Shown: in pieces, positions 11,787 to 61,224 of the stretch | How the letters are laid out: every line of letters begins with the position of its first letter | Position numbering within the stretch: the first letter of the stretch is position 1 | From: a virus | IMG/VR virus record: IMGVR_UViG_3300031463_000001 | Coordinates: 60,899 to 124,898 of that record | Reading direction: 5' to 3' (one strand) | DNA length: 64,000 nucleotides | Translations under genes and position numbers: made by a program | Notes under the pieces: generated by a model | Databases searched by the model: none | What the model was told of the DNA's origin: nothing | The model's input: only the letters and a program-made list of their open reading frames with translations

Positions 11787-12350
11787 TTAGGAAGGATTTT
11801 TTTCTAGTTCGAATTTTACCTCAGGCCAATTAGATATTGAAGTATTTAGAGTAGGATAATCTTTTAAGAAATCGTTTAATTTATTTATTTTTTTAAGGAA
11901 TTTTATATATTGATTTAACCAATAACGATAATTGATTAGTTTAGGCTCCCACACAAGAAACCTATCTTGTAATATTTCCTCAGTATAGGCTAGTGCGAAA
12001 TAGGGATCGTTTGAGATAGTTTCTTCTCCCATTTCCCATCTATGTTTAAGAACATATGCAGAATAAAAAAAAGCATCTTTTACTTGAGTGGCTATAATAG
12101 GTTCACCTTTAGGGAAAGGTTTATCTATATATCTAGCATAAAGATAGGAACTTTGGGAATCTCTAGCTACTATATCTTCCTCGTTATTGGTTAGAGATTG
12201 ATTTAAATCATGAGCAAATTTATATGTTAAATAAGGATCTTGAACTAGTGGGATTAAAGATTTGGCTAGCGAAATATCTTTATTACTGATAGTTTTAACG
12301 AGTAAAAGTCTTAGTGTTTCTTTATCTTTTAATAGATGGGACAGGTTCAT
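11787..12350 (-). CDS. Repeat-protein family member
   Basis: Likely start MNLSHLLKD at 12350; KPFPKGEPIIA repeats; LNDFLKDYP. Confidence 0.88.
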   Translation of the reverse strand: MNLSHLLKDKETLRLLLVKTISNKDISLAKSLIPLVQDPYLTYKFAHDLNQSLTNNEEDIVARDSQSSYLYARYIDKPFPKGEPIIATQVKDAFFYSAYVLKHRWEMGEETISNDPYFALAYTEEILQDRFLVWEPKLINYRYWLNQYIKFLKKINKLNDFLKDYPTLNTSISNWPEVKFELEKNPS

Positions 12351-12358
12351 AAAATCCT

Positions 12359-12730
12359 CTACCAAAGAAAACGAACATTTTCCAAATCCGATAAATCCTT
12401 TTTTATATGAGGCTCAATTACGTATTCAAATATTCTATATTTATTAGCTAGGCCACTACCAAGTTTCGAGATTAGGAAAAGGTTTTGTGGATGTGATTTT
12501 ATATAGTGTCTTAACTTAGAGATTTCATACTTATAAACAGCCGAATACTCATCAGGTTTAAAGAAAGCGTTATCTTCATTAGAAGGTTTCTTTTTTGTTA
12601 TAAAACCATAGGTATTAGGTTCTTCTCTTAAACTAGCTCCTCCACCTAAACCTATTCTTAAATAATTATCTCCGTAGACAAAGATGAAGTTGGGATGGGT
12701 TCTTAGAAATTCTCTAGTTATTTTTTTCAT
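12359..12730 (-). CDS. Conserved phage protein of unknown function (small alpha/beta fold)
   Basis: FVYGDN..R.G.GG.A.LR.EPN..G..TKK motif, recalled from other phage hypotheticals; probable start MKKITREF. Confidence 0.6.
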   Translation of the reverse strand: MKKITREFLRTHPNFIFVYGDNYLRIGLGGGASLREEPNTYGFITKKKPSNEDNAFFKPDEYSAVYKYEISKLRHYIKSHPQNLFLISKLGSGLANKYRIFEYVIEPHIKKDLSDLENVRFLW

Positions 12731-12941
12731 TCTTTTCTTCCTCTTCTTCAAAAAATATTTCACAATGTAATCTGTTGTGTTTATTGAGTTTAAGCCAATC
12801 AAGAATTTTTGAAATTGGATCGTTTATATCAAAAGTTTTTATTTGTGTCCAACTTTCCCAATCATTTTCGTTGATTTGGCTAGATGTTCTAAAGGAAGTT
12901 ATTGCTTTTAGTTTTTTCATTTCTTTCTCCTTGCTACCCAA
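12714..12941 (-). CDS. Hypothetical protein
   Basis: ORF coupled within the operon. Confidence 0.5.
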   Translation of the reverse strand: MGSKEKEMKKLKAITSFRTSSQINENDWESWTQIKTFDINDPISKILDWLKLNKHNRLHCEIFFEEEEEKNEKNN

Positions 12942-13111
12942 ACACGTTCTTCAAGACCTTCTTCTTTATCGAGATCGTAACCCAACTTCTCAAGTTCATC
13001 TCCAGAGTATGTTTTACCTAATACCAATTTAGAGTGAGTTTGTTTTTGGGGAGATCCCTTTAAAACTTTATAATTATCGTTACCTATATCTAGAACAAGA
13101 TATGTTTTCAT
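12917..13111 (-). CDS. Hypothetical protein
   Basis: AGGAGG RBS. Confidence 0.6.
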   Translation of the reverse strand: MKTYLVLDIGNDNYKVLKGSPQKQTHSKLVLGKTYSGDELEKLGYDLDKEEGLEERVWVARRKK

Positions 13112-13124
13112 ACTTTTCCTCCTA

Positions 13125-13385
13125 TTATTTAACTAGTATTGTATCTTTTATTATCCAGTATTCTCCATTCTCTAATAGATAAATATGATATACTCCTTTA
13201 AAGAGATTAAGTTTAAAGGGAGGTTGTTCTAGTATATTAGTAGTACGAGTTAGCTTAATTTTATATTTGGTTTTTGTATTAGGTGGCAGGATCGGAAAAC
13301 ATTTTTCGAATATAGTTACATTTCCTTCTATCTTTTTTCCTCCTATTTTTATTTTTGCATCCTTTAATCTTAATACCCACTCCAT
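13125..13385 (-). CDS. Hypothetical protein
   Basis: AGGAGGT RBS. Confidence 0.65.
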   Translation of the reverse strand: MEWVLRLKDAKIKIGGKKIEGNVTIFEKCFPILPPNTKTKYKIKLTRTTNILEQPPFKLNLFKGVYHIYLLENGEYWIIKDTILVK

Positions 13386-13393
13386 AACACCTC

Positions 13394-13630
13394 CTATTTA
13401 CTTTTCTTAATTAAATACTTCCTTACGTCTTCGTCAGAGGCGAAAGGAAGGGGGGTACCACAACTAGCACATATGAATTCTCCAGCTTCATATCTGTGGA
13501 TTTCTTTTTGAGTATATGATAACTTATTCTTTTTTAAACTTACTTTAAAGTATACAGAGCCATTTTCTACATACTCTATATCTTTGGCAGATCTTATTTC
13601 TGTTTCGCATTTAGGACATTTTATTTTCAT
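13394..13630 (-). CDS. Zinc-ribbon protein
   Basis: CPKC...CASC; AGGAGG RBS. Confidence 0.7.
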   Translation of the reverse strand: MKIKCPKCETEIRSAKDIEYVENGSVYFKVSLKKNKLSYTQKEIHRYEAGEFICASCGTPLPFASDEDVRKYLIKKSK

Positions 13631-13656
13631 AACCTATCCTCCTATATTTATAATAC

Positions 13657-14058
13657 TTAATGCCACCATAATCTTATGATAGTTAGATCTCCAGTATCAG
13701 TATCTCCCCATCGATTAAAGAGAGCCATCCTAGTTGATGGATCTGAGATACGAGATTCAGGTGGAGAAAGGGAAATAGTATTTATGTCAGAATACTCCCA
13801 ACCTTTGATTAACCTTTTAAATTTGTTTAGTTTTTTATTGGGTACGCTAACATACATCTCATCAGCATTATATACCCCTTGTGGGAGATCCCTAAGAATA
13901 ACTAAATCATGTAAACCAAACCTACCATATACTACCCCTTCCCAAAGATGGGAGTTATTGATTAAGTCTTTATATATTTTCTTTCCATCAAACCTATTAA
14001 ATGAGGTTTCTTTTATTAAGGTTAGGATAGCTTTTTGGATTTTATTTATTTCTTTCAT
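13657..14058 (-). CDS. Hypothetical protein (C-terminal RLWW motif)
   Basis: AGGAGG RBS; same strand as its neighbours. Confidence 0.65.
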   Translation of the reverse strand: MKEINKIQKAILTLIKETSFNRFDGKKIYKDLINNSHLWEGVVYGRFGLHDLVILRDLPQGVYNADEMYVSVPNKKLNKFKRLIKGWEYSDINTISLSPPESRISDPSTRMALFNRWGDTDTGDLTIIRLWWH

Positions 14059-14059
14059 T

Positions 14060-14785
14060 TCATCCTCCTATATTTAACTCGTTTTCTAAATTCTTTTTTA
14101 TTTTTGGATACTCATTTAAGAACTCTTCTAATTTGTTTATCTTTCTCAAAAAACTTATGTAATTGTTTAAATATGTTTTATTTTTCATAATTGATTTTTC
14201 TCCCTCTTTAAATCTATCTTTTAATATCTTGGTTGCATAAATAAATGAGGTATCTGATCTAGTGGATATAGCTTGTTCACCTTTTTCAAATTTACTATGC
14301 ATAATAAGTTGGGCATACTTTAATGATGATATCGGATCTTTAGATATTGTTTCCTCACCTTTCTCAAATCTACCCCCTATTATTTCTGTAGCATATTTAA
14401 GGGAGTAGAAAGATGATTTCGAAATACGATCTTCAGCTTTTTCGAATCTACCATATAATATATTTGAGGCATATTTTAAAGCTATATCCAAATCTTTTAT
14501 AAGAGTTTCCTCTGCTATAGGCCAACGATCCTTTATTACGTGTTCTATGTAATAGAAAGTTACCGTTGGACTTTTTAATATTTTCTTTTCTAATTCAATA
14601 TCCAACTTTTCTTTTTTATATGAAAGATAAACATATATATCATTTTCATCACCTACACCTTTTAATAGCATTCTAACTAGTTCTAAATCTTCTTTGTTTG
14701 GGATACCCCATTTATATAGTTTACTCTTTAATAAATCCTTTGCTTTGTCGGGATCTTTTATTAAATCCGTCATATTCATTTTCAT
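14060..14785 (-). CDS. Repeat-protein family member
   Basis: MNMTDLIKDP; YAxxIxxxRFEKGExxI repeats; KLEEFLNEYP. Confidence 0.9.
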   Translation of the reverse strand: MKMNMTDLIKDPDKAKDLLKSKLYKWGIPNKEDLELVRMLLKGVGDENDIYVYLSYKKEKLDIELEKKILKSPTVTFYYIEHVIKDRWPIAEETLIKDLDIALKYASNILYGRFEKAEDRISKSSFYSLKYATEIIGGRFEKGEETISKDPISSLKYAQLIMHSKFEKGEQAISTRSDTSFIYATKILKDRFKEGEKSIMKNKTYLNNYISFLRKINKLEEFLNEYPKIKKNLENELNIGG

Positions 14786-14851
14786 CTCCTTATTATATAT
14801 ACCTATTTCTTATTTTAAATTTTTAAAAGGAGGAGATCTTTTTCTTTCCAA

Positions 14852-15457
14852 TTATATTTCTTCTACTTTCTTTTCAATCAATTCCAATTTTTTATTTAAT
14901 ATATCTGTTCCAAACTCTTTAACAAACTCTTCCAATTTCTCTATCCTTTTTAAATATTTAAGATAAGGATATAAGAAACTTCCATCCTTTATTAACAACT
15001 TTTCATCCTCCTTATTCATCCTTTCTTTTTTATCATCATCCATATAATAAGTAACTATTTCAAAGAACTTATTTTCATCGAATACCCTATTTCTTTTCCC
15101 TTCGACTATTTCTTTTATAGTGAGGTACATATTGGAGATTGGATTCAAAGTATATTCGTTACAATTCTCAAAGTTGAATCCTTCTGGATCCGCCCAATAA
15201 TCAACCTCTCTTATATATTCTCCTTTCAATATCTCTACCACTTTTTCTTTCTTTAATCCTTTCATTAATTTCTCCGTTGGTACATCACTACATATAAACA
15301 TAGCCACTATTAATTTAACCTCATCTCCATCTTCCCCCTCATAGTCATTTATTAACGTCTTTAACTCTTTTTTTACTTCCAAGGCCTCCTTATCATATAA
15401 GACAAAGTCTCCTAAGGGGCCACTATTCATTACTTTTATTTTTTCTTCTATATTCAT
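14852..15457 (-). CDS. Acidic protein carrying the family C-cap (divergent member)
   Basis: YLKYLKRIEKLEEFVKEF; AGGAGG RBS. Confidence 0.7.
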   Translation of the reverse strand: MNIEEKIKVMNSGPLGDFVLYDKEALEVKKELKTLINDYEGEDGDEVKLIVAMFICSDVPTEKLMKGLKKEKVVEILKGEYIREVDYWADPEGFNFENCNEYTLNPISNMYLTIKEIVEGKRNRVFDENKFFEIVTYYMDDDKKERMNKEDEKLLIKDGSFLYPYLKYLKRIEKLEEFVKEFGTDILNKKLELIEKKVEEI

Positions 15458-15513
15458 ACTTCCTCCTTTTTTTATTATATATAATATTACTAATTATTAT
15501 TTTAAATTTTGTA

Positions 15514-15615
15514 GGATGGGAGAGCAGAAGAGAGAGAACAACTCTCCCATCCAATGGAGGACTTTTTGGGAGATGGGAAAGTAATAATAGGAGGACCGAG
15601 GTTACTTTCCCATCT
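15514..15615 (-). ncRNA. Putative double-hairpin antisense sRNA or 3'UTR element targeting MoxR and vWA translation-initiation regions
   Basis: Perfect 11-bp stem (15514-24/15542-52) and 14-bp stem (15571-84/15602-15), each with a 17-nt loop; loops and linker have exact 10-11-nt complementarity to 18805-15, 17740-49 and 18820-30. Confidence 0.6.
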
Positions 15616-15622
15616 AAATTTT

Positions 15623-16237
15623 TTAGAGATCCTCACAATTATATTCCTTTTCTAATTTGTTTACTAATTTTTTCATAGATTTAGGAAAGAAATTTTTTTC
15701 ATAGAAACATCTTATTACTGGATAGATGGATGGATATTCTTTTACAAATCTATCTAATTCGTTTTTCTTTTTTAATAATTTAAAATAATATTCAGCATAA
15801 CTATATCTTATATGAAGTACATCACTATCTTCTGTCACCTCAAAATCATCTAAATTATCTACTAGATAATCTACTATCATTTTTTCTACGTTCTTATCTT
15901 TTATATCTACTTCAAAATTACTTATATAATATAATGCTGTCTCAGGATCTTTCAATACTAAATCTTTTCCGATCCAATGTTCTGGATCTGGCTCAAGGTC
16001 AAAATTATACATATAAGCCCATGCGAGGTCTGGATCAGATAACATTTGTTTCATTTTATTTTCAGGGAATTCAATATCTATATTGTAATATATTTTATAG
16101 AGTAAGTTAGGATCATTTATGTGAGGTAACAAAGCTTTAATCATATCCTCTTTTTCTTTTTCTTCGTCATTGCTAAATATCTCCCAAACTACATCTTCTA
16201 TTTTTTTGGAGTCTCTTAATAACTCTTCTGTATTCAT
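15623..16237 (-). CDS. Divergent acidic repeat-family member
   Basis: MNTEELLRDS...ALLPHINDPNLLY N-cap; YFKLLKKKNELDRFVKEYP C-cap. Confidence 0.75.
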   Translation of the reverse strand: MNTEELLRDSKKIEDVVWEIFSNDEEKEKEDMIKALLPHINDPNLLYKIYYNIDIEFPENKMKQMLSDPDLAWAYMYNFDLEPDPEHWIGKDLVLKDPETALYYISNFEVDIKDKNVEKMIVDYLVDNLDDFEVTEDSDVLHIRYSYAEYYFKLLKKKNELDRFVKEYPSIYPVIRCFYEKNFFPKSMKKLVNKLEKEYNCEDL

Positions 16238-16429
16238 AACGTCCTCCTTTTTTATTTTTATTTTATAATTATAATACTAAATTAAACAAAATTTTTTATT
16301 TTTTTGTGAACCTGGGGATATGAAAAAATTAATTTAAAAACCCAAACTGAGGGTCTGGTTTTAAGGAATTAAGTTCGAAACTGATTTAAGAGAAGCTTTT
16401 TAGACCCACAGGACTGTTTAATTTTAGTT

Positions 16430-17737
16430 TCACTTCTCATCGAAGACTATCACTCGATGGTCACTCCTTTTCATTCCTTCTAATACCTTTTTCTCCTCCT
16501 CATTTTCGCACAGCCATACAATTTTGGGTTTGGGCCATTTTGTAACTCTCTGACTCCAATATCCATCTGTGACTCCAATTATGAGGTCAATCTCTTTTTC
16601 ATTCTCTTTCAACCAAGTAATGGCTGGCACAATATCAGTTCCACCTCCTCCAGCAAGTTCGACTTTATGTTTGACCTCCCAATCTTTGATCACCCTGAAG
16701 TTAACGTCAAACTCTATGAAGTATTTAACTTCTATTAATTCTTGAGAGATCATCTCTTTAATCCCTCTGATGACTCTCCCATAGAATTTATCACTCTCGA
16801 ATAGAGAGCCAGAAGTATCAAACAAGATCGCAACCCCTATCTTGCTCTCTTTCTTTTTCTTTCCTGGAATGACGATCTCATCATCATCATTCCTTCTATT
16901 AACTCTTGCGTAGCTGTTATCTGCGGTAGAAGGAAGAGTCCCAATTACATTCTTTAACACTTCCTTCCATTTCGCAGGTAACTTTTCTAGGAGGTCAAGA
17001 ATCCTAGATAACTCTCCAGGAAGTTTCCCAGCCAACTTATTCATCTCACTCTTGATTCCCTTCTTTACGTCTTCCTTTATTCTTTCTTTTTCTAAGGGAC
17101 TGTTTTTAAATTCGTCCCTCAGTTTCTCGTGATCGTCAACCGTTTGACGATCTCCTTTTTCTTCGCCCTCACCTCCTTCACCTCCTTCACCTTCTTCACC
17201 TCCTTCACTTCCTTCCTTCCCTTTACCTGCTCCGCTATTTTTCCCATTACATTTACCTCCCTGTGAAGGACAATCTTCATTAATTTTTATATTTTTCTGA
17301 AGTTTCATGAATATCTCTTCTGCGGAATCTTCCTCTTGGACTTCCTTATTGAATTGCCTCAGCCAATCGTGAGTCACAAAAGGCTTTCTACATAATAAGG
17401 GAAGATTCTGATTTATCGTAGCATCCTCAGCCCAGTTGGCCATCATATTCGAAGGTAATCTTTCAAAGTGTCCCATTGCCACATGGAGACACTCGTGCAT
17501 TACAATCTGGGCCAATAATTCTTCTCCATTAACATTTAGTTTGTGGGCCAATTCCTTCAATTTCTTTACATTGACCCACATTTTTTCTTTCCCAACACCC
17601 GCTGGGAAAGGGAGAGTGTCATCTCTAACAATCTCCCTCTTGGTCAGCACATAAACCAACGTGCGACCGTAGGTGGACCTAATTACTACGTTAGTAATTA
17701 GGTCCCTCAACTCTGAGTCTCGAATTTCCAGATTCAT
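16430..17737 (-). CDS. HEXXH metallopeptidase-like plus vWA domain protein (DUF2201-type)
   Basis: HECLH..GH, NWAEDATIN, Gly/Glu-rich linker, MIDAS DTSGS, GGGTD, TDG. Confidence 0.88.
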   Translation of the reverse strand: MNLEIRDSELRDLITNVVIRSTYGRTLVYVLTKREIVRDDTLPFPAGVGKEKMWVNVKKLKELAHKLNVNGEELLAQIVMHECLHVAMGHFERLPSNMMANWAEDATINQNLPLLCRKPFVTHDWLRQFNKEVQEEDSAEEIFMKLQKNIKINEDCPSQGGKCNGKNSGAGKGKEGSEGGEEGEGGEGGEGEEKGDRQTVDDHEKLRDEFKNSPLEKERIKEDVKKGIKSEMNKLAGKLPGELSRILDLLEKLPAKWKEVLKNVIGTLPSTADNSYARVNRRNDDDEIVIPGKKKKESKIGVAILFDTSGSLFESDKFYGRVIRGIKEMISQELIEVKYFIEFDVNFRVIKDWEVKHKVELAGGGGTDIVPAITWLKENEKEIDLIIGVTDGYWSQRVTKWPKPKIVWLCENEEEKKVLEGMKRSDHRVIVFDEK

Positions 17738-18819
17738 TTGTCCTCCATTTTATCAAGTATTTCTTTAAGTTTAGGAATATCTTTTTCGTCTATTCCTAAA
17801 CGTGCTGCAACCCACGTATCAAACTCTTTATCACTGACTTTCCATTTTGGAGCCTCTCGCCATATAGACGAAAGCCAAGCAAGTATCAATTCTCTGTCTT
17901 TGTCTTTCAAGTAGTTAAACACTTTGAGGAAGTCTTCCTTCTTTACTCCCACATTCTTCTTGATGCCTGACTCTAATAAGGTAATCCTATCCCCTTTGTC
18001 TATCTGGTCTAGTAACTCTGGATTTTTGATTACCTCTTCATAGGAAGGCAATTTAGGTTTAAAGTTTACCAACGCCAAAGCAGCTGTCCTTCCTATAAGA
18101 CCTATCAACATTGGAAGACTTATTCCATTTCTTTCTTGCTCGGCTATCAAAGCTCTCTCCCAAGTCCTTGGACAAGCAAAGCCCTGATAGACATCTTCGT
18201 CGAACTCTTCATTAGGAGCAATCAATTTTTCATTTTCGGCGAAGAATCTCTTTAAGAAAGAGCTCATTAAGCCTCTCTTTTCCATGTAGCTTATCCAGCC
18301 TGACTTGTCTCCCTTGACGACGTAGTAACACACTCTGGCTTTCCAAGCCACGTCGTCTTCCCTTACATTGTACTCGCCTGATGGATTGATCGCCCCAAGA
18401 ATTCTCACACTTGAGGGATCAAACTTTAACTCCTTGACCTTCCATTCGGCTAACAATTGAAAGACAGAGTGAGCCAAAGCAGGTTTCGCTCTATTATATT
18501 CGTCTAGGAATATTACGCTTTTCTCTCCCCTGCTCTGTCTCTCAAGTATTTCTCGCCACATAGGCAGAGCTCTCCATTCTACCTCATCTTTCACTTTAAT
18601 AGCAAAGCCAAGGACGTCTCCTACATCCTCAGCCTGGGCTAAGTGAATCACAAATGCTTTCGCACCTGTTGATTCACACGCTTGTAACACTCTGGCTGTT
18701 TTCCCTAAGCCAGTGTTACCCACTAATACCAGTGGCAACATATCTTTCGCCCTTATATGTGCCACTAACTCACTGTCGAGATTTCTCTCGACTATCTTTA
18801 TCTCTTCTCTCTCTTTCAT
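17734..18819 (-). CDS. MoxR-like AAA+ ATPase
   Basis: Walker A GNTGLGKT, Walker B IFLDEYNR, AINP, PRTWE. Confidence 0.88.
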   Translation of the reverse strand: MKEREEIKIVERNLDSELVAHIRAKDMLPLVLVGNTGLGKTARVLQACESTGAKAFVIHLAQAEDVGDVLGFAIKVKDEVEWRALPMWREILERQSRGEKSVIFLDEYNRAKPALAHSVFQLLAEWKVKELKFDPSSVRILGAINPSGEYNVREDDVAWKARVCYYVVKGDKSGWISYMEKRGLMSSFLKRFFAENEKLIAPNEEFDEDVYQGFACPRTWERALIAEQERNGISLPMLIGLIGRTAALALVNFKPKLPSYEEVIKNPELLDQIDKGDRITLLESGIKKNVGVKKEDFLKVFNYLKDKDRELILAWLSSIWREAPKWKVSDKEFDTWVAARLGIDEKDIPKLKEILDKMEDK

Positions 18820-18999
18820 TCGGTCCTCCTTTTTTTAATTTTCCCTTTAACGACAACATGAGGGAAAATTATTTATTTTATAATATATATACAACTAGGC
18901 CTTTAATTTTTTTATTTTTTGAAAGTCTAATTTTAATCCCTCTTAATATCGACGAACGTAGATTTAAACCCGCTGGATTTTTAAATCCTTAAGGAAGAG

Positions 19000-19018
19000 T
19001 CCCCGCTTTATGCGGGGA
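19000..19018. other. GC-rich hairpin (terminator or remnant of an IS605-type end)
   Basis: TCCCCGC-TTTAT-GCGGGGA. Confidence 0.45.
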
Positions 19019-19045
19019 GAGAATTCTAGACTCTGAGGCCCCACC

Positions 19046-19104
19046 TCGATAACATTATTTTATGTTATAATGCTTCATTTCGATAACATTATCTTAGAGT
19101 ATAA
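19046..19104. repeat. Two imperfect 25-bp direct repeats with a 34-bp period; the first overlaps an extended -10 (TGTTATAAT)
   Basis: TCGATAACATTATTTTATGTTATAA and TCGATAACATTATCTTAGAGTATAA. Confidence 0.6.
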
Positions 19105-19329
19105 CCTTGATGATACAAAAGTTTATGCTACTCCCCAAAAACACCCATCAAGGAACACGCTCCACACAAAAACTCAAAAGGGACTCAACACAAAAGGAAC
19201 CTGGTTAATGGTTATGACCCCACGTGAATTTTTTTGCTAAAAAAATCCACTAAAGGGGGAAAATACATCAAAAAAAAGAAGGTAATGATTTTCTTTTTAT
19301 CGTTAAGGATTTATATATTGGAGGTAGTT

Positions 19330-20196
19330 ATGGAAATAGAAAGAATACTAAGAGACCCCACAATATTAGAGAAAGGTTATACAGTGAAGGATGCAAGATT
19401 GAGGAAACTGATAAAACAGGCAACCGAAAAATATTATATGAATTATGGAAATTACAGTGGTGAGGAGTACGTGGAAGCATTTTCAGCTCACCTAGAAGCC
19501 GAAAAAGCATTTAAAAAAGCAGAAGATTTACTATTAGAGGATAAAGAGCTACCTCCAGAGATAATAGATGCAATAGCAAAAGTGCCTCGCTATGCAGAAC
19601 AATTAGGAGAACTTTTGATAGATTTTAATAAAGACGTACCCACTAAGATAAAGGATAGTATTAAATGGCATAGTGACTATTCTAATAATTTTATAGCACA
19701 TTTAATAGAAAAAGATAAAGACGTACCCCAAGAATTTATTGAAAAAATAAATGGGGGTAATTTATCCCGTTTATTTTTTAAATATTTAGAAAGAGGTAAA
19801 ACGATACCTCCCGAAGTTTTGGATAATTTTAGGCATGCCCCAACAACTTCACTAAAGGTAGCTTTAAAGCTTATAGACATGGGTAAAGAGATTCCTCTTC
19901 CCATATTAGAAGGAATAGGACAAGATCATTATGATGCTACAGAATTTGCAGATTATTTATTAGAAAAGAAAGGTGAAGTTGCTCCAGAACCAATTATAAG
20001 AGGATTATTGAAAGACTCTTTTGCAGCAGGTAATTATGCAGTAGATTTAGCAGAATTGGATATTCCTGTTCCTCAACTTTTGATTGATGGATTAGACCCT
20101 TTCCAATTAGGAAGATACAAAGAAGTATTAAGAATGAAGTTTAGTCAACAACATCCGGGTGAAGACCTTCCAGATTATTTGGATTATGGAAGTTAA
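19330..20196 (+). CDS. Divergent helical-repeat protein with a family-like N-terminus
   Basis: GGAGGT RBS before ATG 19330 (MEIERILRDP); about 27-aa repeats of the type L.DKDKDVP.EII..I. Confidence 0.75.
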   Translation: MEIERILRDPTILEKGYTVKDARLRKLIKQATEKYYMNYGNYSGEEYVEAFSAHLEAEKAFKKAEDLLLEDKELPPEIIDAIAKVPRYAEQLGELLIDFNKDVPTKIKDSIKWHSDYSNNFIAHLIEKDKDVPQEFIEKINGGNLSRLFFKYLERGKTIPPEVLDNFRHAPTTSLKVALKLIDMGKEIPLPILEGIGQDHYDATEFADYLLEKKGEVAPEPIIRGLLKDSFAAGNYAVDLAELDIPVPQLLIDGLDPFQLGRYKEVLRMKFSQQHPGEDLPDYLDYGS

Positions 20197-20199
20197 CTC

Positions 20200-20394
20200 C
20201 TAGCTAATGTACACTCTTTTGAGATTTCTTTTCCGAGATATTATATTTTTAAAAAAATCCTTAATCTCATCCAAAGTACCAACACATCGAACTATTCGAT
20301 CTTCGTCGGATACGACATATTTATACCAAGTACCTTCATTTTTTCGACTAATTCTATAAAACACATCTTTTTTGCAACTCATTCTAACCCCCAT
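20200..20394 (-). CDS. Hypothetical protein
   Basis: ORF in a minus-strand run. Confidence 0.45.
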   Translation of the reverse strand: MGVRMSCKKDVFYRISRKNEGTWYKYVVSDEDRIVRCVGTLDEIKDFFKNIISRKRNLKRVYIS

Positions 20395-20407
20395 TCACAA
20401 CATTCCT

Positions 20408-20737
20408 TTATCGAGATTTAATAGTAAAGATTGCAGGATTTATTACACCTTTTTCGTCACCCTTACCAAATTGTTTATTCCAATATAATTTAAACTCTTC
20501 TCCTCGAGGATGAAAGTGAGCTATAGCTGCAGCCATACAACCAGCTTGGAATCCTGTAATATCGCTATCTTTAATTCCTAATCTTTCAGCCTCTTCACAC
20601 GACATTCCTTTATCGAGATTTTCGCACACCTTAACAACAACATCAACGACAGCACTCCCATAAGGATCGTCGTTCTTTTGAACGTAATTTTCCCATTCAT
20701 GTTTTAACTCTTCAGTTTTTGTTGTTATCATTTTCAT
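20408..20737 (-). CDS. Hypothetical protein
   Basis: GGAGGAG RBS; globular-looking sequence. Confidence 0.7.
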   Translation of the reverse strand: MKMITTKTEELKHEWENYVQKNDDPYGSAVVDVVVKVCENLDKGMSCEEAERLGIKDSDITGFQAGCMAAAIAHFHPRGEEFKLYWNKQFGKGDEKGVINPAIFTIKSR

Positions 20738-20762
20738 TTTTTCTCCTCCGTTAAAGATTTTT

Positions 20763-20966
20763 TCATTTTGGTTCCTTACGAAATTTATCTATCTTATCAG
20801 CTAAAGAATTAAAGGAATCTACCTCAAACTTATACTCATCAGGAAGTCCATTTGTTAATATTATTAAGGAAGCATGGATGTGATTAGGATAACATGTTAT
20901 TCTCATTTCCCAATCTTTATATTTTCGTTTTAATTTATTTGTTATAATATCCATTTTATTTTTCAT
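20763..20966 (-). CDS. Hypothetical protein
   Basis: ORF in the operon. Confidence 0.5.
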   Translation of the reverse strand: MKNKMDIITNKLKRKYKDWEMRITCYPNHIHASLIILTNGLPDEYKFEVDSFNSLADKIDKFRKEPK

Positions 20967-20969
20967 AAT

Positions 20970-21233
20970 TTATCCTTTAAAATTTACTTTATATTCTTTT
21001 GGAGGAACATAATAATTAAAGATTGGTTCAAGTTCATTTTCATTTATTATTTGATTATTTTTATCTATGTGAACATAAAATGTTTTTGGAACTTTTGGAG
21101 GAACATAATACTGTTCACTAGATATTTTAACTCCATTTCTAGTAGAGAATGGACCTAGAAAACAGGCTCCTCCAGAATTTATAAACACGATAGCTTTATT
21201 GTAACACTTAATTTTAGACTTTTGTGGTTTCAT
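20970..21233 (-). CDS. Hypothetical protein
   Basis: AGGAGG RBS; YYVPPK occurs twice. Confidence 0.6.
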   Translation of the reverse strand: MKPQKSKIKCYNKAIVFINSGGACFLGPFSTRNGVKISSEQYYVPPKVPKTFYVHIDKNNQIINENELEPIFNYYVPPKEYKVNFKG

Positions 21234-58395: not shown

Positions 58396-61224
58396 ATGAT
58401 TTTTTTAAAGCGTGGTATTTATTTTAAATTAAAGGATTTTCCTTTTTTGGTTAAGGATATTGATTATAATTTTAGTGTACCTGATATAAGTTTTGTTAAA
58501 AAACTTTCTTTTATATTGAGGAAACATTTTAATTTACCAATAATACATTCAAATATAGAAGATTTTTTTATCAATACTAATAACATAGGAGAAAGTGAAT
58601 TTTTAATTTCGTTTCCAAATTTAGTTTTAATGAAAAAAAGTGATTTTTCTCCTACTTTAGCTATTTCTCCAGTTTATGATTTAGAGATAACCATGCCTAT
58701 TGATGTAATGTATTCTGATGAAAAAAATGATACTGAAAAAAGTTATACTATTCCAGATTTTGTAGAACATCGAGATTTTGATTTAGAGGGGATGTCTGAA
58801 TTAAGCTTATTATATGAAATTTATACGAAAAATAACTCAACTGATTTTGTTTTAAAAATTTTAAGGGATGAGGATGATTTTGTATACTTTAGTTTGAATA
58901 AAGATAATGAAAAAATAAGTCTGAAAAAAATAGATTTAGAAAATGAGGATAAATTACATTTAATAGATAAAGGTTGGATGAAATTTGTAAATAAAGGATT
59001 TATTAGATTTTTTGGTCATTTTTTGAATGGAAAATTTACAATAGATAAGAAAAATGAGATTTTTGTTTTAGATAAAGTAGCTCGACAACCTAACACTACT
59101 TGGGAAATTAATGAACCTTATGCACCTTTGGAGTGGGCATTTCCTGCAAATGTATCAAGTGATAAGAGTTTATATTTACAGGTGTGGCCTTATCAATGGG
59201 CTAAATATCCAGGAGAAAATATACTTTCAACATTATTAGAGTTAATGAGAACTTTAGGAGATAAAAGTTTAGAAGAAAAAGTACCTGATAAGAAAAAAGT
59301 AAAAAAAATAGATGATGTTGAAGATTTTTTAAAAGAAATGAATAAAGAAGGAAGTATTTGTTGGTATACATGGAAAAATGGTTATAGTGATAAAACTACA
59401 TTTAAAAATTTTTTAAAAGGTTGGTTAATAAAAAAAGCAGATGAAAAAGATTTAACGAGATTAACCGATAAAGATAAAGTTAAATTTTATAATGAAGTTA
59501 AAATGGTAAGGGATGAACTTCAGAAAAAATTTGATGGAACCGAATTAAAATCAGAATTATTTAAACGTCTAAAAATTACATTTCCTGATTTAAAAGATGA
59601 AACTATTTTTAGGGCAATTGATAAAATAATGAAAGAAGCTAATGTTTATGAAGATAAAGAACAGCCAGTAATATTAGGAGATGATTATGGAACGGAGTTA
59701 TTTCCTCATCATGATTTTCCAGAAAATACTAATGATGTTAAGATAGATATACCTTTTCATTTAGATGAGCTTGATAGGAGTTATATTTTTGATTTACCTA
59801 CTGCAGGAGCTTATTTGATTGCTCTTCCTAATGGAGATCAATTTATAGTGGATGAAAAAGATTTAGAATTATTTAAAAAGAAAAGTTTAAAGAAAAAATT
59901 AAGTAAACAAGTGATAGAAGCAATTAAAAAAATAGGTGAAGAGAAAAAAGAAGAAAAACCTGTAATACCTTCGATAACTCAAAGAGTTAGAAAGCTTTTA
60001 GATCCTTTGAGAGAGAAAGTATGGAAGGCTAAGGGTGAAAGGATATCTGCGACAACATTTGATGAAGAGGAAATAGAAAAAAATTTAGGACTTGTAATAG
60101 ATACGGGTGATCCTCTTTATGTTAATGCAATATTGGTTTCTGTAAAGGGTGAAAAAGTTGAAAAGAATTCAGAAGGTAAACCTTATTGGATTATACCTTT
60201 AGAGATTGGGATAGCTTTTGAAAAAAATATTCAACAGTATACAGGGGAAGTTTGGGTGTCTTTTTCAAAATTGAAAGATGAAGAAGATTTTTCATTTAAT
60301 TTTAATATTGATGAAGTTGAAGTTTTTGTTATGTTGAAAGGATGGAGGGGATTAGGAAAAATATTGGAAGCATTATATAATCAATTAAGAGAAATTAAAA
60401 GAATATATCCTAAAACTAATCTTCCAGATTTTAAAATGACATTTAGATTTAATATATTAGGAAAAGAAAGTGAGGAAACAGTAGATCGTATTAGGTCTGA
60501 AATAGAAAAGGACGCTAGAGATCTTTTTGAAGAAACGTTAAAATATGTTTTAAAAAGTGAAAAAAATAAATTAGAGGAGTTTGAAAAAATTTTAGAGGGA
60601 ATAAAAAGATTAAAGAAGGAAGTAAATATTCGAATAGAAGTAACGGAAAAAGAAAAATCAGATTTTTTAATATCTTTTTTGGTAAATGTTACTTTACCTC
60701 AAAAAACTTTTGAAATACCTTTAAATTTTTCTTTAAAGCCAGTATCTTCTTCCTCTTTAATTGAGATAGATGGGATAAAAGTTGGGGTTGAAATAGGAAA
60801 TACAAAAGAGTTTGGTGACTTTTTGGAAGGAGTTATTAAAGAGAAACTTGAAATATATAAAACTTATGGAGTTTTGACTAAAATAAATGTGAATATTTAT
60901 GCTCCATCAGAAACAACAACTATTGAATTAACATCGGGTGATCCTTTAAAAGAAATATTTAATAAGATTATTGAGTTAGTAAAAAAAGATTTAATAAAAA
61001 CGTGGGGAGAAACACTTAAAGGAAAACAAGAAATGCAAAAAATGGTGGCAGAGGGTAAAAAAATTACACCTAAGGAATGGGTAAAAGAACAATTAGGTGA
61101 GGATAAATTTACAGAATTAGAAAAAGAAATAGGTTCAAAAGGATATTATGTTGATGAAGTAACAAATTTAATGATTCAAGAGTATCCACTTGATGAAAAA
61201 TTTTACTTGGTCACAAAAAGGTAG
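58396..61224 (+). CDS. Large hypothetical protein (942 aa), probable virion protein
   Basis: Long ORF in the late-type operon; no recognisable motif. Confidence 0.65.
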   Translation: MIFLKRGIYFKLKDFPFLVKDIDYNFSVPDISFVKKLSFILRKHFNLPIIHSNIEDFFINTNNIGESEFLISFPNLVLMKKSDFSPTLAISPVYDLEITMPIDVMYSDEKNDTEKSYTIPDFVEHRDFDLEGMSELSLLYEIYTKNNSTDFVLKILRDEDDFVYFSLNKDNEKISLKKIDLENEDKLHLIDKGWMKFVNKGFIRFFGHFLNGKFTIDKKNEIFVLDKVARQPNTTWEINEPYAPLEWAFPANVSSDKSLYLQVWPYQWAKYPGENILSTLLELMRTLGDKSLEEKVPDKKKVKKIDDVEDFLKEMNKEGSICWYTWKNGYSDKTTFKNFLKGWLIKKADEKDLTRLTDKDKVKFYNEVKMVRDELQKKFDGTELKSELFKRLKITFPDLKDETIFRAIDKIMKEANVYEDKEQPVILGDDYGTELFPHHDFPENTNDVKIDIPFHLDELDRSYIFDLPTAGAYLIALPNGDQFIVDEKDLELFKKKSLKKKLSKQVIEAIKKIGEEKKEEKPVIPSITQRVRKLLDPLREKVWKAKGERISATTFDEEEIEKNLGLVIDTGDPLYVNAILVSVKGEKVEKNSEGKPYWIIPLEIGIAFEKNIQQYTGEVWVSFSKLKDEEDFSFNFNIDEVEVFVMLKGWRGLGKILEALYNQLREIKRIYPKTNLPDFKMTFRFNILGKESEETVDRIRSEIEKDARDLFEETLKYVLKSEKNKLEEFEKILEGIKRLKKEVNIRIEVTEKEKSDFLISFLVNVTLPQKTFEIPLNFSLKPVSSSSLIEIDGIKVGVEIGNTKEFGDFLEGVIKEKLEIYKTYGVLTKINVNIYAPSETTTIELTSGDPLKEIFNKIIELVKKDLIKTWGETLKGKQEMQKMVAEGKKITPKEWVKEQLGEDKFTELEKEIGSKGYYVDEVTNLMIQEYPLDEKFYLVTKR

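Follow-up and report, generated by a model that had tools for sequence, protein, structure and literature searches.

A twin-hairpin element in an AT-rich phage genome carries complements of upstream ribosome sites and may act as a translational repressor RNA

INTRODUCTION

What is the role of two perfect hairpins that stand in tandem between two phage genes and carry, in their loops and linker, the complements of gene starts upstream? This question is raised by positions 15514-15615 of the 64,000-nucleotide (nt) stretch analyzed here (hereafter the window; positions 60,899 to 124,898 of IMG/VR virus record IMGVR_UViG_3300031463_000001), which forms the second half of a viral contig of 124,898 bp with 28% G+C and an estimated completeness of ~76%. 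The twin-hairpin element fills most of the 165-nt gap 15458-15622 between a gene of 204 amino acids (aa) and one of 201 aa, downstream of a MoxR-like ATPase gene and a vWA-like gene. The original prediction had described it as an antisense RNA with three guides directed at the starts of the MoxR and vWA genes. We find that the feature is real, conserved, and non-random. In the reading that we prefer, and hold with slightly less than even confidence, the element would be a gene-sense 3′ untranslated region (3′UTR) or a small RNA that blocks the ribosome sites of upstream genes by means of two GUCCUCC guides.

Pairing of C-rich loops or 3′UTRs with Shine-Dalgarno (SD) sequences is well established in bacteria. 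To our knowledge, few regulatory RNAs have been reported from large AT-rich environmental phages, and almost none from uncultured ones. A literature search returned no description of such an element beside phage MoxR/vWA genes.

RESULTS

Architecture of the element

The element consists of two perfect inverted repeats of 11 and 14 bp, both closing loops of 17 nt and joined by a linker of 18 nt, so that the earlier account of two perfect stems with single-stranded segments of 17-18 nt can be read directly from the letters. Hairpin 1 (15514-15552, minus strand) has the arms GGATGGGAGAG/CTCTCCCATCC (15514-24 / 15542-52), which form the 11-bp stem around the CU-rich loop A. Hairpin 2 (15571-15615, minus strand), with the arms AGATGGGAAAGTAA/TTACTTTCCCATCT (15571-84 / 15602-15) and a 14-bp stem around loop B, begins 7 nt past the stop codon of the 204-aa gene (15623-25). 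Within loop B, the presumptive guide (15589-15599, minus strand) reads UCGGUCCUCCU and contains GUCCUCC; the linker (15553-15570, minus strand) reads GUCCUCCAUU on the RNA at 15553-62.

Both strands fold stably, with energies of -48.6 kcal/mol (z -7.3) for the minus strand and -53.4 kcal/mol (z -5.8) for the plus strand, and 0/200 shuffles were as good in either case. The predicted minus-strand folds put one GUCCUCC copy in loop B and leave the linker copy partly free only. In both the minimum-free-energy and the centroid structure, the last codons of the 204-aa open reading frame (ORF), UGUGAGGAU (15629-15637, minus strand), are predicted to pair with the anti-SD sequence of the linker and to close a helix around hairpin 2. 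As the original prediction anticipated, the element exposes anti-SD sequence on the minus strand in these predicted folds, and it proves conserved, structured, and non-coding.

A perfect TATAAT hexamer (15638-15643, minus strand) stands 22 nt ahead of hairpin 2, close to the 3′ end of the 204-aa ORF and still within it. The hexamer is kept in the relative L002 described below, has no good -35 sequence, and is absent from the promoter scan listing. It could start an independent small RNA.

Complementarity to upstream gene starts

Each of the three single-stranded segments matches a gene start upstream. Loop B (15589-99, plus strand) equals the reverse complement of 18820-30, the 11 nt immediately 5′ of the ATPase ATG, and loop A (15528-38, plus strand) equals the reverse complement of 18805-15, ATPase nt +5 to +15; together the two sites therefore bracket AUGA on the ATPase mRNA, whose target region (18805-18830, minus strand) reads AGGAGGACCGA, then AUGA, then AAGAGAGAGAA. 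The linker (15553-62) is the reverse complement, over 10 nt, of the ribosome-site target of the vWA-like gene (17740-17749, minus strand; AAUGGAGGAC). All three matches to MoxR and vWA starts that the original prediction had reported are thus exact, and each is the sole exact copy in the 64-kb window.

Two of these matches, those of loop B and the linker, share a rare ribosome-site word. In the 124,898-bp genome, both strands counted, GGAGGAC is present seven times, and five of the seven occurrences fall within 3.3 kb at this locus. The word forms the ribosome sites of three consecutive upstream genes, encoding the ATPase, the vWA-like protein, and the 204-aa protein, and of no others among the 127 called starts (3/127), and the element itself holds two inverted copies (GTCCTCC on the gene strand). 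At the 204-aa gene, the GGAGGAC ribosome site (16241-16247, minus strand) matches loop B over 8 nt and the linker over 7 nt, and it ranks 3/171 for both in the scan that follows.

To rank candidate targets across the genome, we used a home-made IntaRNA-like scan, combining duplex energy with accessibility, over 171 crude gene starts. For loop B, the ATPase start ranked 1/171, at -19.1 versus -12.8 kcal/mol for the runner-up. For the linker, ranks 1, 2, and 3 of 171 were held by the vWA-like gene (-9.6 kcal/mol), the ATPase gene (-7.7 kcal/mol), and the 204-aa gene (-7.4 kcal/mol), respectively. The check that had been suggested for this element, namely that a genome-wide interaction scan should place the MoxR and vWA starts on top, therefore turned out favorably for loop B and the linker, at the resolution of a crude scan. 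For the low-complexity loop A, the ATPase tied for first place (-11.7 versus -11.7). A simpler scan of 127 starts agreed with the 171-start ranking.

Chance level of the matches

Exact matches of at least 10 nt between the element and the 125-kb genome number 43, and a single 10-11-mer is accordingly not special; the longest match of the element (13 nt) falls at the ribosome site of another gene, at 13117-29. Among true ribosome-site regions, at least 11 nt were common to 106/8001 pairs and at least 10 nt to 202/8001. Since raw counts of antisense 10-mers are dominated by A/T runs and hence uninformative, we counted energy-filtered blocks instead, i.e., exact blocks of at most -14 kcal/mol scored against start regions. 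Three blocks on two adjacent genes were found in only 1/94 intergenic region-strands, which is the element. When 102-nt segments were slid along the sequence, 64/14,682, falling into 15 clusters, reached three blocks; 10 of these clusters are inverted gene-family junction repeats, 4 consist of one short word repeated, and the element is the sole cluster with three different sequences. Thus, the concern that many sites would match equally well holds for the individual words, but the triple match on adjacent genes is unique.

Duplex folding (duplexfold) of the whole element against the leaders was discarded, as it produced artificial long-range interior loops. We also compared hairpin 2 with an inverted copy of the ATPase leader (21/25 identical); the score of 30 was the highest, against 27, 26, and 25 for other genes, and descent of hairpin 2 from an inverted leader copy is unproven.

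Conservation in related contigs

Positions 14800-19000 had no blastn match in the phage collection, and searches of viral contigs for related loci (with the 204-aa, ATPase, and 201-aa proteins, an ATPase alignment, and P0002) found none; a scan of genome contigs gave one 27%-identical match, of no use. The hairpin-1 stem pattern occurred in six viral contigs, which we took to be unrelated hairpins, five of them at G+C 0.33-0.50 and the sixth (L006, G+C 0.29) in a record without an ATPase homologue. In the collection scans, neither the hairpin-2 pattern nor the word spanning linker and stem was found (0 matches). A metagenome scan yielded four related loci (L002-L005), of which only L002 and L003 extend to the position of the element.

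L002, the only close relative, is collinear with the window and ~87% identical to it. Its stems are unchanged (0/50 nt); all differences (3 substitutions and 3 indels) fall in the loops and linker, giving hairpin loops of 15 nt (hairpin 1) and 20 nt (hairpin 2) versus 17 and 17 nt in the window. All five local copies of GGAGGAC are retained. In loop B, a C>U change sits opposite a G>A change in the ATPase ribosome site: CCUCGGUCC pairs with GGACCGA in the window and CCUUGGUCC with GGACCAA in L002. As a result of this compensatory pair, the 11-nt match of loop B survives in L002. Each target scores better with its own guide, the ATPase target of the window at -22.8 with its cognate guide versus -20.7 with the L002 guide, and that of L002 at -21.0 with its cognate guide versus -19.0 with the window guide.

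The linker 10-mer and its target at the vWA-like gene are both unchanged in L002, and a changed linker and a changed second codon of the vWA-like gene there create four added pairs (CUCA with UGAG), such that the energy goes from -17.0 to -20.5 kcal/mol. Loop A, in contrast to loop B, shows no covariation: it loses 2 nt in L002, the target changes are uncompensated, and the match shrinks from 11 to 8 nt (-17.5 to -11.2 kcal/mol). Of the loop/target covariation that had been proposed as a test, one compensatory change is thus seen for loop B and none for loop A. Of the three guides originally proposed, loop B and the linker stand, and loop A, which is of low complexity, ties in the ranking, and decays in L002, does not; two guides are supported, not three.

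L002 also contains ~120 extra nt directly after the stop codon of the vWA-like gene (L002:3321-3440, corresponding to a gap near 16425 in the window). Here the hairpin-1 stem (GGATGGGAGAG...) occurs a third time, now closing a short loop and including a G.U pair, and the promoter-like TACAAATTTTAAAA that accompanies hairpin 1 again comes after it. Among four DNA runs, whose contigs covered neither hairpin 2 nor the ATPase start, a contig of run X2 has the same junction and extra hairpin. The segment looks like a duplicated or mobile hairpin-plus-promoter cassette.

The more distant L003 (70% ATPase identity) has ribosome sites of the GGAGGAA type and is without both the twin hairpin and GGAGGAC sites; at the equivalent position it has a different single hairpin ahead of a similar promoter-like stretch. 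Its gene order differs from that of window 14836-16270, the 201-aa homologue following directly after the vWA-like gene and the 204-aa homologue lying ~1.7 kb further. At L003:4071-4103, 47 nt upstream of a gene with the ribosome site AGGAGGGAG, lies a 13-bp hairpin (TATAGGAGGGGAT/ATCCCCTCCTATA) in which one arm imitates an SD sequence and the other is anti-SD; it is possibly a cis-acting, SD-sequestering switch.

Proposed mechanism

We infer that an RNA is made from the element, that the gene-sense (minus) strand is the one transcribed, and that repression follows from pairing. The RNA would serve as the 3′UTR, either on the 204-aa message itself or on operon transcripts that read through, or it would be a fragment of such transcripts. 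It would display GUCCUCC twice, in the 17-nt loop of hairpin 2 and in the linker, and these copies would pair with the rare SD variant GGAGGAC of the ATPase, vWA-like, and 204-aa genes, with the ATPase most strongly. Flanking bases would lengthen the pairing to 11 nt at the ATPase gene and 10 nt at the vWA-like gene. By covering the ribosome site up to the start codon, such pairing would lower translation, either in trans or through fold-back in cis, and the CU-rich loop A may provide an auxiliary contact at most. The term "kissing loop," used in the original prediction, fits only loosely, as the proposed targets are ribosome sites in linear sequence and not loops, and its description of the MoxR/vWA module as "early or toxic" is unsupported by our analysis.

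A further step, which we put forward more tentatively than the mechanism itself, is that GGAGGAC may serve as a private ribosome-site variant for the three-gene module, read by the GUCCUCC sequences of the twin hairpin, with the flanks setting gene-by-gene specificity. The whole would then amount to an address-coded translational off-switch, in which guide and address co-evolve between related phages; one such instance is seen, between the window and L002.

Regarding the strand, two changes in L002 hint at the minus strand: the G.U pair in the extra hairpin-1 stem copy would be an A.C mismatch on the plus strand, and an A>G change in the helix closing hairpin 2 (A-U to G.U) pairs on the minus strand only.

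Several points weigh against a guide function of this kind. The evidence for covariation comes from a single informative relative and a single pair, and a compensatory pair would arise by itself with a probability estimated at ~0.05 (assuming one change per 11-mer). Loop A loses its match in L002, as noted above, and the 25-nt similarity of hairpin 2 to the ATPase leader is not clearly above background. Both the gene calls and the energy scan are home-made approximations. Opening the linker costs 5.4 kcal/mol, which is included in its net value of -9.6 and reflects a predicted local pairing; pairing of a 17-nt loop with a long mRNA over 11 bp would be under steric strain. On the plus strand, the sequence past hairpin 2 reads AAATTTTTT, and a T6 run (15619-24) lies 3 nt beyond the hairpin. 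On the minus strand, the letters after the stems are CCCAAAAAG (hairpin 2) and TACAAAATTT (hairpin 1), and neither hairpin has a U-run behind it. The recurrence of the hairpin-1 stem with a short loop beside the same promoter-like sequence hints at a generic, non-guide role. Finally, 72 nt past the stop codon of the vWA-like gene, a terminator-like hairpin (16342-16358, minus strand; CCAGACCCTCAGTTTGG then GTTTTTAAAT), which is kept in L002, probably ends the ATPase/vWA transcript; the ATPase/vWA mRNA may therefore usually stop short of the element, which makes action in cis uncertain.

Alternative explanations

The strongest competitor, which we consider unlikely but a serious contender, is that the hairpins are plain 3′-end structures (a terminator, a stabilizing hairpin, a processing site, or part of a hairpin-plus-promoter cassette) whose loops have no target, the matches being due to chance and ribosome-site-like composition. 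The position of the element, 7 nt past a stop codon and just ahead of an AT-rich promoter-like stretch, is what this explanation would lead one to expect, as are the third hairpin-1 stem copy followed by TACAAA(A)TTT(T)AAAA in L002 and the X2 contig and the other single hairpin at the equivalent hairpin-plus-promoter position of L003. Loops that differ between relatives would likewise be expected if the stems alone matter, and the 43 matches show how common words of 10-11 nt are. However, chance and composition do not readily account for the concentration of five of seven genomic GGAGGAC words within 3.3 kb, for a triple match that is unique in the genome, for the top ranks held by the proposed target genes, or for the compensatory change in L002.

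An ordinary intrinsic terminator, in particular, was rejected. The element shares with such terminators its G+C-rich perfect hairpins right after a gene (7 and 5 G-C pairs in the stems), but it differs from them in its 17-nt loops, its tandem arrangement with a conserved linker, and the missing U-tract on the sense strand; in five other hairpins of the genome, which resemble true terminators, the stem leads straight into a T-run on that strand. Our terminator scan, which requires loops of 3-8 nt, listed neither hairpin, and one terminator-like hairpin elsewhere in the genome has a 15-nt loop.

Less probable is a plus-strand RNA of ~130 nt ending with hairpin 2 and UUUUUU. In its loop and linker, this RNA would present AGGAGGACCGA and AAUGGAGGAC as imitations of ribosome sites, acting as a decoy for whatever binds such sites (a protein, an anti-SD RNA, or the 30S subunit), and it would overlap the 204-aa mRNA at its 3′ end in antisense orientation. 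The T-run at 15619-24, the likewise very stable plus-strand fold, and a TATAAT hexamer at 15480-85 on the plus strand would fit such an RNA. However, the promoter scan scored no site there on either strand, an AAA separates the stem from the T-run, unlike in the terminators of this genome, the neighboring genes are all on the minus strand, and the two wobble-type changes in L002 described above would be A.C mismatches.

Action at the level of DNA, in which a phage or host protein would bind the four GATGGGARAG arms or the GGAGGAC/GTCCTCC words and thereby regulate either the promoter next to the element or the three genes upstream, appears still more doubtful. The arms are kept as sequence, with no compensatory stem changes, hairpin 1 adjoins a promoter-like stretch in two contexts, and a site in double-stranded DNA works either way round, which would fit the inverted copies. 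Against this, the spacing of the arms varies (17 versus 15 nt, 17 versus 20 nt, and 4-10 nt in the third copy), which fits a hairpin and makes a dimer operator unlikely; the shared stretch is only 7-11 bp; and three GGAGGAC words stand exactly at SD positions, pointing to the RNA level.

A small protein is very improbable, and this reading was rejected: a 44-aa ORF (15502-15636, minus strand, GTG start) spans the element and a 45-aa ORF lies at the same place in L002, both open to the same stop and alike in translation over their first and last thirds, but the L002 ORF requires a different start codon in another frame, 1-nt and 2-nt deletions shift the frame over ~11 middle residues, the start overlaps the end of the upstream gene without a good ribosome site, several frames are open across the stretch, and nucleotides are conserved where amino acids are not.

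Genes and hairpins of the locus

The ATPase gene (17734-18819, minus strand) encodes 361 aa with an AAA_5 (MoxR-like) domain (PF07728, E 5e-8). The vWA-like gene (16430-17737, minus strand), whose start overlaps the ATPase stop, encodes 435 aa with DUF2201_N and DUF2201 domains, i.e., a putative metallopeptidase domain and a VWA-like domain (PF13203, E 2e-13; PF09967, E 2e-7). The MoxR and vWA identities proposed at the outset therefore hold by Pfam. In PHROG, the DUF2201 protein matches phrog_1314 (E 3e-46), a family that bears the name "HNH endonuclease"; given the metallopeptidase-like and VWA-like domains found by Pfam, this label looks misleading. The 204-aa gene (15623-16237, minus strand), of which the element would be the 3′UTR, and the 201-aa gene downstream of the element (14852-15457, minus strand) gave no match to Pfam or PHROG. 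An AT-rich promoter-like stretch (15458-15513) separates the element from the 201-aa gene. A search of 12000-21000 with Rfam 15 (E up to 1), which includes the C4 RNA family, found nothing on the element and one weak unrelated match at 19742-79.

The ATPase leader carries a hairpin of its own at window 18836-18871, with an 11-bp stem and a 14-nt loop (UUUUCCCU...AGGGAAAA), which ends 5 nt before the AGGAGGACCGA word and whose GGGAAA/UUUCCC core resembles the hairpin-2 stem. It is the sole one among 10 perfect intergenic hairpins in the whole genome with the pyrimidine-rich arm first; the other 9/10 have a 5′ arm of the GGGAGA/GGGAAG type and a 3′ arm of the UCUCCC type, such that the stems of intergenic hairpins are themselves built of SD-like and anti-SD-like sequence.

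DISCUSSION

A close parallel to the proposed two-guide RNA is offered by RsaE/RoxS of low-GC Gram-positive bacteria, small structured RNAs whose several C-rich motifs, left unpaired by the fold, bind G-rich sequences resembling ribosome sites in a number of mRNAs (PMC5419742). The same multi-motif anti-SD logic is proposed here for the phage element. The two are not homologous by Rfam; the phage-encoded element lies at a 3′UTR position, uses GUCCUCC rather than CCCC/UCCC, and would act on neighboring genes rather than on a metabolic regulon, and it is known from sequence alone.

In the icaR 3′UTR of Staphylococcus aureus, the UCCCCUG motif is described as pairing with the SD region, blocking ribosome loading, and making an RNase III substrate, in cis or trans (PMC3868564). 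By its position, the anti-SD sequence of the phage element may likewise belong to a 3′UTR, as the element begins 7 nt past the stop codon, and over 8 nt it is complementary to the 204-aa gene's own ribosome site. The element differs from that example, to which it shows no homology, in having two motifs, whose best matches (11 and 10 nt) are to two other upstream genes, maybe on a separate transcript.

Among phages, the c4 RNA of the P1 immI operon belongs to the same operon as the genes that are repressed (c4, icd, ant1/2; PMC8198154). Like c4, the element would be a phage regulatory RNA encoded beside the genes it represses. It differs in that c4 lies upstream of its targets, is processed from a transcript, and belongs to another RNA family, the element having no Rfam match; c4 also serves lysogeny and immunity, and no such context was seen in the examined part of this phage. 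The c4 RNA is reportedly built with two short complementary segments, one of which covers a ribosome site, and P1 and P7 are said to differ by matched changes in guide and target.

If the proposed mechanism is true, this phage can silence a chosen module through a rare extension of the ribosome site and a matching anti-SD RNA encoded alongside, a compact and portable translational repressor. It would also yield a rule for searching metagenomes, namely clusters of rare SD variants near their reverse complement in hairpin loops. The advance would then be a new instance and a new arrangement of anti-SD regulation, rather than a new principle.

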